DNA of 64,000 nucleotides from Escherichia coli (GTDB taxonomy: Bacteria > Pseudomonadota > Gammaproteobacteria > Enterobacterales > Enterobacteriaceae). The stretch is from assembly GCF_003334785.1 (NCBI RefSeq), contig NZ_QOWV01000003.1, one strand, 5' to 3'. The position numbers and the translations under genes were made by a program. Every line of letters starts with the position of its first letter. Position 1 is the stretch's first letter. Shown one piece after another: positions 8,325 through 19,046 of this stretch. The notes beneath the pieces were generated by a model. The model worked only from the letters and a program-made list of their open reading frames with translations. It had not been told where the DNA came from and made no database searches.

Positions 8325-8871
8325 TTAATTTATGCAGCAGGTCCATCACTTGCTGCACCTCTTCCTGTGTGAGCGCCCCGTCTTTGGCCCATTGCACGCG
8401 ACCATCCTTATCCAGCACCACTACAGCGGAACTTTCTTCATCCAGCTGCCAGGCACCGCGCGCGACGCCATTGCTATCGACAATAAACTGCGACCAGGGA
8501 TAAAGCTTTTTATTACTCTCCAGACTGCTGCGCACAAACATCCCTGAACCCGGAATCGCGTCGTCGGTGTTAACAATGGTGGTGGTCTGGTAGCGATCGT
8601 GCGGTAACTTCGCTGATTTAATCGCTTCAATCAGCGTCGCGTTTTTCTCTTTTGCAGAGGTGCGACCAGCAATATGTTGCAGTACTCGCACTTTTCCCAC
8701 TAACTGTGCGCTGTTCCAGGTTTTGTAGCTAAACTGATCTTTATCAAGCACCAACTCGCCTCGATCGGTAATGCCAATCGGCGGCACTCGCTGACCGGTT
8801 TCGAACTGATGTGCGGAAGCCATCATCGGCAACAGCAGGCAGGTGAGTGCCAGAATCTTGCGTAGGGTCAT
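8314..8871 (-). CDS. ytfJ: periplasmic protein YtfJ (signal peptide, unknown function)
   Basis: 185 aa; N-terminal signal peptide [20 protein letters not shown]; 3' end overlaps the cysQ 3' end by 11 bp. Confidence 0.88.
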
Positions 8872-11931: not shown

Positions 11932-17483
<5,552 letters not shown>

Positions 17484-17485
17484 CA

Positions 17486-17827
17486 ATGCGAATATTTGTC
17501 TACGGCAGTTTACGCCACAAACAAGGCAACAGTCACTGGATGACCAATGCCCAGTTACTGGGCGATTTCAGTATCGATAACTACCAGTTGTATAGCCTGG
17601 GCCACTATCCAGGCGCAGTTCCGGGGAACGGAACAGTACACGGTGAAGTTTATCGTATTGACAACGCCACGCTGGCCGAACTTGATGCCTTGCGCACCAG
17701 GGGCGGTGAATACGCGCGCCAGTTGATTCAGACGCCGTACGGGAGTGCATGGATGTACGTTTATCAACGACCCGTCGATGGATTAAAGCTAATTGAAAGC
17801 GGCGACTGGTTAGACAGGGATAAGTAA
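17486..17827 (+). CDS. ytfP: gamma-glutamylcyclotransferase-like protein
   Basis: 113 aa; MRIFVYGSLRHKQGNSHW (AIG2/GGCT fold YGSL motif); starts 3 nt after the tamB stop. Confidence 0.9.
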   Translation: MRIFVYGSLRHKQGNSHWMTNAQLLGDFSIDNYQLYSLGHYPGAVPGNGTVHGEVYRIDNATLAELDALRTRGGEYARQLIQTPYGSAWMYVYQRPVDGLKLIESGDWLDRDK

Positions 17828-17835
17828 TAATAAAA

Positions 17836-17864
17836 GCACGCCACCTTCGGGTGGCGTTGTTTTA
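17836..17864 (+). terminator. rho-independent terminator after the tamAB-ytfP operon
   Basis: cgccacc-ttcg-ggtggcg hairpin followed by ttgtttt. Confidence 0.65.
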
Positions 17865-18149
17865 TGCGATGTATCTCGCGATTTTTTTTTGTAACTTTTC
17901 CATCTTTTGCTTTTCTCTCCGAGCCGCTTTCCATATCTGCAATCGCATAAAAAACTCTGCTGGCGTTCACAAATGTGCAGGGGTAAAACGGGGGCACGCT
18001 TTGAACGGTGAGTATGAGTGAGGTCGGCTAACTTCCAGCAAGTGGCTATGAACAGCAAAATGGTGGTCGGGTTTGCTTGTTCTTACCGTTCAAGCCTTGC
18101 AACCGCTGAGAATAATGATGGTGGAATAGAGAGTTTATTTATCGCGGGC

Positions 18150-18190
18150 ATAAAAAAACCCTTACTAACCGAAGCCCGGCGTTCAGGGTT
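18150..18190 (-). terminator. rho-independent terminator of ppa
   Basis: minus-strand aaccctgaacgccgggcttcggttagtaagggtt hairpin followed by ttttttt. Confidence 0.65.
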
Positions 18191-18206
18191 ATTGCGCTAG
18201 AAGAAC

Positions 18207-18737
18207 TTATTTATTCTTTGCGCGCTCGAAGGAAGCAACGATTTCAGCTTTAGCGGCTTCTGCGTTTTCCCAACCTTCAACTTTCACCCACTTGCCTTTT
18301 TCGAGGTCTTTGTAGTGCTCGAAGAAGTGAGCGATCTGCGCTTTCAGCAGCTCTGGCAGATCGTTAACGTCTTTAATGTGATCGTATTCTTTGCTCAGCT
18401 TTGTGTGCGGAACAGCAATCAGTTTCGCATCTTCACCGGCTTCGTCGGTCATTTTCAGAACGCCAACCGGACGGCAACGGATCACAGAACCCGGCTGCAG
18501 CGGGTACGGAGTCGGGACCAGTACGTCAACCGGGTCACCGTCCAGAGACAGGGTGTGGTTGATGTAACCGTAGTTGCACGGATAGAACATCGCGGTGGAC
18601 ATGAAGCGGTCAACGAACAGTGCGCCGCTCTCTTTGTCGATTTCGTATTTGATCGGATCTGCGTTAGCCGGGATCTCAATAACAACGTAGATGTCTTCCG
18701 GCAGATCTTTACCCGCAGGGACGTTGAGTAAGCTCAT
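18207..18737 (-). CDS. ppa: inorganic pyrophosphatase
   Basis: 176 aa; [34 protein letters not shown]... family-I PPase. Confidence 0.95.
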
Positions 18738-19046
18738 GTCTGTTTCCTTTAAAAATATGTGGCAAACAAGTGCCGAGTATTATAGCCAACTCGCGCCGAA
18801 TGTCTTCGCTTGTTTTCGTCTTCATTTTCCTTTTTCGCCAATTTTAAGACGGTATACAGAGCAGGAAAATCCATAACCGTAGCCGCATTTTTCATAGTGA
18901 GATGAAAGCGATTACAAACTTGTGATTAACGTTTTATTTACTTCTTTGAAGTGTGATGTAACGCAATCCGTTACATAACGAATTGTCTATAGTTTTTTCG
19001 CGAACATCTTTTCACCAATAATAATTACCCCGACGAGGACAACCCT

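Follow-up and report, generated by a model that had tools for sequence, protein, structure and literature searches.

A probable deletion scar of the chpS–chpB toxin–antitoxin operon between ytfP and ppa in Escherichia coli

According to Masuda et al. (1993, as cited in PMC7167474), the chpS–chpB pair of Escherichia coli K-12 (chpBI–chpBK) is a type II toxin–antitoxin (TA) operon of the MazEF/PemIK family. In K-12 MG1655 both genes lie within an 886-bp interval between the convergent genes ytfP and ppa (RefSeq annotation). The DNA analysed here, a stretch of 64,000 nucleotides of an E. coli chromosome (contig NZ_QOWV01000003.1, hereafter the window), shows at the same place a gap of only 379 bp, from 17828 to 18206, in a region matched by all 5,426 of 5,426 complete E. 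coli genomes. This locus raises the question of whether the gap is a site that never received the operon, or a site from which the operon was lost. A preliminary description of the window had given the extent of the gap and the K-12 arrangement, both of them correctly (for the latter, PMC5120126 agrees), and had interpreted the gap as an empty site. As detailed below, this interpretation did not survive the alignment with K-12, which instead points to a deletion scar in which the leader of the cassette survives together with about 130 nt of decayed chpB.

Layout of the ytfP–ppa gap and the chpB relic

The features referred to in the text, with the coordinates of the window, are the following.

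13704–17483, plus strand: tamB (from the ORF list)
17486–17827, plus strand: ytfP, gamma-glutamylcyclotransferase family, left flank of the gap (ORF; annotated in identical genomes)
17838–17890, plus strand: ytfP intrinsic terminator, formed by the hairpin ACGCCACCTTCGGGTGGCGT (17838–17857), a second small hairpin (17865–17880) and a T9 run (from folding)
17858–17990, plus strand: retained leader, or spacer, of the chpSB cassette, equivalent to the K-12 ytfP–chpS intergenic region, up to the left deletion junction, which ends ...GGGGTAAAACG (from alignment)
17991–17999, plus strand: 9 nt, GGGGCACGC, at the junction of deletion 1, with no K-12 counterpart
18000–18129, plus strand: chpB pseudogene relic, codons 7–48 followed by the last three codons and the stop (from blastn, Smith–Waterman and tblastn)
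18018–18200, plus strand: spurious 60-aa ORF, which crosses the relic out of frame and runs through the ppa terminator
18119–18124, plus strand: TGGTGG microhomology at the junction of deletion 2, where two blastn matches overlap
18130–18206, minus strand: chpB–ppa spacer with the ppa intrinsic terminator (95% identity to K-12; from folding)
18207–18737, minus strand: ppa, inorganic diphosphatase, right flank of the gap (ORF; annotated in identical genomes)
19047: start of ytfQ

Comparison with K-12 revealed an abrupt change at the left border of the gap. Specifically, ytfP is 99.7% identical to its K-12 counterpart, and the sequence of the gene immediately upstream of the leader reaches 99.5–100% identity in 200-nt bins; right after the ytfP stop codon, the divergence from K-12 rises from <1% to 14%. 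The bin covering the leader (17790–17989, 200 nt) is 85.9% identical to K-12, and the corresponding value over 17780–17990 is 87%. At the opposite border, the region 18119–18206 shows 95% identity to the last 10 nt of chpB followed by the chpB–ppa spacer. In MG1655, chpS starts 211 bp past ytfP and chpB ends 79 bp ahead of ppa, the same spacing figures being tabulated in PMC5120126.

Both terminators previously proposed for the gap are present. The ytfP terminator folds with a free energy of -24.5 kcal/mol (z = -4.25), and its hairpin is kept in all the genera compared, whether the cassette is present or not. The ppa terminator is composed of a hairpin (18157–18190) and a U7 tract on the minus strand, which appears as an A run at 18152–18158 on the plus strand. 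The claim that the gap holds nothing else did not stand, as the leader and the chpB relic are found there as well. A promoter scan of the region 17400–18800 returned no promoter-like site, and a Rfam scan of the region 17700–18300 (E <= 1) returned no family at threshold. A match to the S15 leader inside ppa scored 16.8 bits against a gathering score of 39.5, and was taken as chance.

The relic was recognized at the nucleotide level. The segment 18000–18124 aligns to K-12 chpB codons 7–48 with 72% identity over 127 columns (blastn, E 2e-14), and its Smith–Waterman score against chpB is 71, compared to 16 +/- 2, with a maximum of 26, for 2000 shuffles. The final codons and the stop of chpB follow at 18119–18129. 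In position, orientation and flanks, the relic is colinear with the intact K-12 gene, since the leader and the downstream region align on either side of it. Its reading frame is destroyed, as indicated by three-frame translation and by the alignment: two in-frame stops, TGA at 18009–18011 and TAA at 18029–18031, replace Gly10 and Phe17, respectively, and single nucleotides are deleted after 18012 and after 18074. The closest sequences are those of the Escherichia chpB clade, with 71–74% identity, versus 48–60% for the chpB genes of other genera. In the RefSeq annotation of relic-bearing genomes, the relic itself is unannotated.

The alignment with K-12 and the tBLASTN searches proposed in the preliminary description bore out that the window lacks the intact pair present in K-12, but the alignment also uncovered the chpB remnant. 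With ChpB as query, tblastn on the 64-kb window found only a 28-residue fragment (residues 15–42, at 18023–18106), while ChpS gave chance matches only (E >= 2.4), all of them outside the gap. An intact ORF for the 116-aa toxin is missing from the window. Also missing is chpS, the gene for the 83-aa antitoxin, which in the intact operon directly precedes the toxin gene and overlaps it; in the alignment to K-12, chpS is wholly deleted. The palindrome GAGTTATACTTTGTATAAC, which in K-12 would represent the operator together with the promoter, falls within deletion 1. Taken together, none of the features that define a functional TA operon is present in the gap, and all those of a pseudogene scar are. 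With respect to the K-12 operon, the window shares the ytfP–ppa site and the orientation, the leader, the downstream region and a relic homologous to chpB codons 7–48 and the last codons; it differs in the lack of chpS, of the operator/promoter and of an intact toxin ORF, and in a chpB remnant that is 28% diverged and interrupted by stops and frameshifts. The site is unable to function as a TA system.

The 60-aa ORF at 18018–18200 had already been judged not credible, and the comparison with other relic-bearing genomes led to the same judgement. The frame is interrupted by stops in 536 and KE26, the two B2 strains examined, the GTG start is replaced by GTA in E. albertii, and the ORF is never annotated in relic-bearing genomes.

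Deletion junctions and the putative operator

Relative to K-12, two segments are missing from the window. Deletion 1 measures about 303 bp and comprises 49 bp of the promoter/operator/ribosome-binding-site region, the whole of chpS and the first chpB codons. Deletion 2 measures 201 bp, is in frame and covers chpB codons about 49–115. Together with 3 nt of small indels, these two values account for the difference in length between the two intervals (886 - 379 = 507 = 303 + 201 + 3). The hexamer TGGTGG occurs at both ends of the K-12 segment missing in deletion 2, and a single copy of it is left in the window; this is the signature expected of a microhomology-mediated event, and deletion 2 may well have arisen in this way. 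At the junction of deletion 1, the 9 nt GGGGCACGC recur with 1–2 changes in the relics of B2 strains, E. albertii and SCPM-O-B-8794. An attempt to read these 9 nt as chpB nt 10–18 gave 0/9 matches and was abandoned.

The sequence GAGTTATACTTTGTATAAC upstream of chpS is conserved in all the seven aligned cassette-bearing lineages, which belong to six genera, and is absent from the window. It is located just before the chpS ribosome-binding site, 209–214 nt past ytfP (loci L007–L086), and across the six genera its position is invariant and its sequence nearly so, whereas the remaining leader has diverged. On these grounds, GAGTTATACTTTGTATAAC likely corresponds to the ChpS/ChpB operator and the -10 region.

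In conclusion, these data support the interpretation of the gap as the non-functional scar of a chpS–chpB type II TA operon that was formerly located here and was removed by two deletions with a single old origin, a reading to which we assign a probability of roughly 0.88. In this scenario, the first deletion would have taken the palindromic operator/promoter region, chpS and the beginning of chpB, and the second one the chpB codons comprised between the TGGTGG repeats. What would be left is the cassette leader, about 125 nt of 5' chpB disrupted by frameshifts and stops, the three terminal codons, and the shared downstream region, in which the ppa terminator lies. Judging from its sequence, the gap would work only as two back-to-back terminators, and neither expression nor activity is expected from it. 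As loss of the antitoxin would otherwise have been lethal, TA biology suggests that the toxin was inactivated before the antitoxin was lost or together with it.

A comparable behaviour is reported for ccdO157, a chromosomal type II TA system at a fixed intergenic site. As Mine and colleagues are said to have described in Genetics in 2009 (cited in PMC7167474), some E. coli strains carry it intact, whereas in others it has degenerated. Its decay reportedly proceeds mainly by point mutations of the toxin, with the antitoxin kept. The two cases are alike in that a chromosomal TA system at a fixed site is intact or degenerate depending on the strain, with toxin inactivation as a permissive first step. 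They differ in that the antitoxin of the ytfP–ppa site is fully deleted, the toxin is reduced to a fragment, and a single scar allele is common to several species.

Alleles of the site among E. coli genomes

The distribution of the two states was assessed in the 5,426 complete E. coli genomes. A chpSB match was found in 3,100 of them, and was full length in 3,098. The scar, counted as a match to a 166-nt probe across both deletion junctions, was found in 2,322 genomes. The two classes sum to 5,422 of 5,426 and intermediates are essentially absent. The scar and the intact operon coexist in E. coli as two alleles of a polymorphic site, and homologous recombination via the conserved ytfP and ppa flanks has probably shuffled them. 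Three of 3,101 chpSB matches sit on records classed as plasmids.

Carriers of the scar include BL21(DE3), strain 536 and ATCC 25922 (strain 'Seattle 1946'). It follows that BL21(DE3) and ATCC 25922 are devoid of ChpB and ChpS, which is relevant when phenotypes of K-12 TA deletions are extrapolated to them. For strain typing, a use suggested previously, the allele is too widespread to permit fine discrimination, the surrounding 25 kb being 100% identical in many unrelated isolates. As to its suggested use for studying gain or loss of the TA module, the difference between strains is real and common, but the scar records a loss and offers no pre-insertion site.

Variability of the ytfP–ppa locus has been known since 2013, when Pastorello et al. 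(mBio, PMC3735183) described it as occupied by esiB, by chpBS or by neither. In their set of 47 genomes, 32% had neither, 53% chpBS and 15% esiB. The window corresponds to the 'neither' allele, and the frequency obtained here, namely 2,322 scar genomes minus about 188 with esiB, out of 5,426, is of the same order as the published 32%. The accessible text of that paper describes the genes as simply absent and makes no mention of a chpB remnant, whereas a remnant is present here. A search of the literature library covered here for a described chpB remnant or pseudogene at the ytfP–ppa site found no paper, and in a bacteraemia genome-wide association study (PMC6096937) chpB and chpS are treated as accessory genes. 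Since the 'neither' allele appears to be a loss scar, it should not be used as the pre-insertion state in studies of gain and loss.

The esiB gene itself, which encodes a secretory-IgA-binding protein, was detected in 188 of the 5,426 genomes. In UPEC_U013 (locus L087, 1834–3524), it is flanked on each side by a copy of the ytfP terminator hairpin, and the same chpB relic follows downstream. The duplicated hairpin probably corresponds to the 'short direct repeats with partial inverted symmetry' mentioned by Pastorello et al. (PMC3735183). In the window, the hairpin occurs once and an insert of 1.5 kb is absent (esiB being 1.47 kb long), which sets it apart from the esiB allele.

Further states of the site were encountered. 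In the cerebrospinal fluid (CSF) isolate E. coli N50 (locus L088, 1–3500), an operon of licT, a glycoside hydrolase family 1 gene and a beta-glucoside PTS IIABC gene adjoins ppa and replaces the relic, which represents a fourth, rare state. In FDAARGOS_1250 (NZ_CP069571.1), IS1A interrupts an otherwise 100% identical ytfP–ppa region. Strain HH45 (locus L003, 1070–1335), labelled as a PemK/MazF pseudogene in RefSeq, carries 101 nt identical to K-12 chpB followed by relic-type sequence. It was considered as an intermediate allele and set aside, with about 130 nt upstream being extremely G+C-rich and laden with homopolymers; this allele probably reflects an error of the assembly or the consensus, or else may have arisen by recombination of the intact and scar alleles. 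The ytfP–ppa site thus emerges as a small hot spot, where chpSB, the scar, esiB with the scar, the beta-glucoside operon and an IS1 insertion are found.

The cassette in other genera, and the age and divergence of the scar

The state of the site outside E. coli was surveyed with YtfP as query and one genome per species, which yielded 80 loci. In 10 of the 80, chpS–chpB directly follows ytfP: four Escherichia lineages, Lelliottia, Enterobacter asburiae, two Pseudocitrobacter, Kluyvera genomosp. 1 and strain RIT691. In nine of the ten, ppa follows the cassette within the fetched flank, while in Lelliottia it was not found within that flank. The cassette leader measures 209–214 nt in all the seven cassette loci that were aligned. 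With the same position and spacer length in Lelliottia, E. asburiae, Pseudocitrobacter, Kluyvera and others, the cassette is native to the ytfP–ppa site. Unoccupied sites, found in Citrobacter, Klebsiella, Enterobacter hormaechei, Pluralibacter and Trabulsiella, are 94–155 bp long and contain the two terminators and little else, the spacer being lacking at truly empty sites. In comparison with the approximately 100–160 bp, terminators only, of a never-occupied site, the window has 379 bp with leader and relic, and this length is accounted for by the terminators plus cassette debris.

These data bear on the possibility that the gap is a true ancestral empty site, and that K-12-like strains gained chpSB by insertion between the terminators. 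Such a gain would be in keeping with the patchy occurrence of chpSB in Enterobacteriaceae, limited to the ten of 80 ytfP loci above, and with TA modules being commonly seen as horizontally mobile (reviewed in PMC2654758 and PMC7167474). However, about 130 nt of leader and about 130 nt of chpB are retained in the right place and orientation, and genuinely unoccupied sites have neither of them. A pre-insertion site cannot hold pieces of the insert, so that the relic refutes this explanation, to which we give almost no credence. Rather, the scar appears to mark an old loss and not a gain by K-12. It would be an unremarkable relic devoid of function, at a site already known to vary, where chpSB would be ancestral and was lost once, long ago. 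Loss of the cassette is recurrent, as independent fragments of it are found elsewhere: Citrobacter sedlakii (locus L033, 2933–3062) has two ChpB C-terminal fragments, residues 64–107, at the ytfP–ppa site, and Enterobacter cloacae DSM 26481 (locus L035, 4600–4668) has a ChpS fragment, residues 9–31, adjoining ppa.

Both junctions, as well as the TGA and TAA stops, are common to the B2 strains 536 and KE26, to the E. albertii type strain NBRC 107761 and to the divergent Escherichia lineage SCPM-O-B-8794. The same junctions and stops across these lineages indicate that the scar arose once, and its sharing by E. coli phylogroups, E. albertii and another Escherichia lineage that the loss is old. 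A comparison of tamB 4-fold sites places E. albertii as outgroup of the remaining Escherichia lineages, and those that carry the relic are not grouped in one clade; the scar is consequently at least as old as the radiation of the genus, or it has moved between species.

The divergence values of the locus are not uniform. The relic differs by 27–28% from every intact Escherichia chpB, against only 4–18% among relic-bearing species, and intact Escherichia chpB copies differ by 2–5% in the relic segment. Within E. coli, the relic diverges by 6% between phylogroup A/B1-type and B2 strains, compared to 8–16% at 4-fold sites, which is about the neutral rate. The gaps of E. coli and E. albertii share 89% identity over their whole length, versus 60–65% at the 4-fold sites of the flanking tamB and ytfQ; at the 4-fold sites of ytfP and ppa the identity is 87%, and for ytfP, ppa and intact chpS/chpB the values between species range from 82 to 93%. 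A 1.3-kb island of low divergence (window 17486–18737) therefore spans the site with either allele. It is a mild puzzle that the relic differs less between species than do neutral sites of the flanking genes, and a model of simple vertical neutral decay would not yield both the 27–28% and 4–18% figures of the relic and the 89% identity of the gap. We favour two old allele classes that recombination in the conserved flanks has passed between Escherichia lineages. Selective constraint on the relic itself is less probable in view of the broken ORF, the scattered substitutions and indels, and the lack of a promoter or Rfam match.

Selection could be invoked if the scar had been co-opted, with leader and relic acting as a small RNA, as a ppa/ytfP 3'UTR element or as a 60-aa peptide, so that its persistence and low divergence would be explained. 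The high identity of the gap between E. coli and E. albertii, set against that of tamB and ytfQ, and the survival of the relic in at least three species-level lineages despite bacterial deletion bias are compatible with such a role. Co-option is nevertheless quite improbable, considering that the scans detected neither a promoter-like site nor an Rfam family, that the ORF is lost in the B2 strains and in E. albertii, and that substitutions and 1–2-nt indels are scattered through the relic among lineages. Moreover, ytfP, ppa and intact chpSB are equally low in divergence; the island is thus independent of the relic and is better explained by interspecies exchange or by a locally low substitution rate. 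The large distance between relic and intact gene, together with the short distances within each class and the sharp rise in divergence past ytfP, could also be accounted for if the relic descended from another chpB allele or paralogue, deeply diverged (roughly 15–25% nucleotide difference), that was imported into Escherichia and then decayed, and was never the same copy as the intact gene. We regard this origin as unlikely: the relic is clearly closest to Escherichia chpB, with all sampled chpB genes of other genera far more distant, neither the 5,426 E. coli genomes nor the 80 species loci showed a relic-like intact gene, and the leader of the E. albertii relic allele has several K-12-like states, as predicted for one diverging locus.

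Building on the preferred reading of two old allele classes exchanged among lineages, we tentatively consider that intact chpSB and the scar may form an ancient allele pair older than the split of Escherichia. Both occur in several species-level lineages off the species tree, and they could be co-maintained or repeatedly swapped by recombination in ytfP and ppa. Such a pair, if real, would leave the 1.3-kb island that is observed, and the site would represent a natural experiment on the retention of an 'addictive' TA module versus its cost. The wider biological significance of the scar is small, and the low interspecies divergence over ytfP, gap and ppa might interest work on recombination and on TA population genetics.

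Two other differences from K-12 were observed in the window. Between cysQ and ytfJ, ytfI is missing, 1,225 bp of K-12 (locus L006, 7088–8312) being replaced by 4 nt at 8325–8328. In the yjgL region (45118–46100), the segment 45186–45908 is only 83.6% identical to K-12, with short unalignable pieces on either side, and yjgL is present as a divergent allele in a window that is otherwise 97–98.5% identical to K-12.
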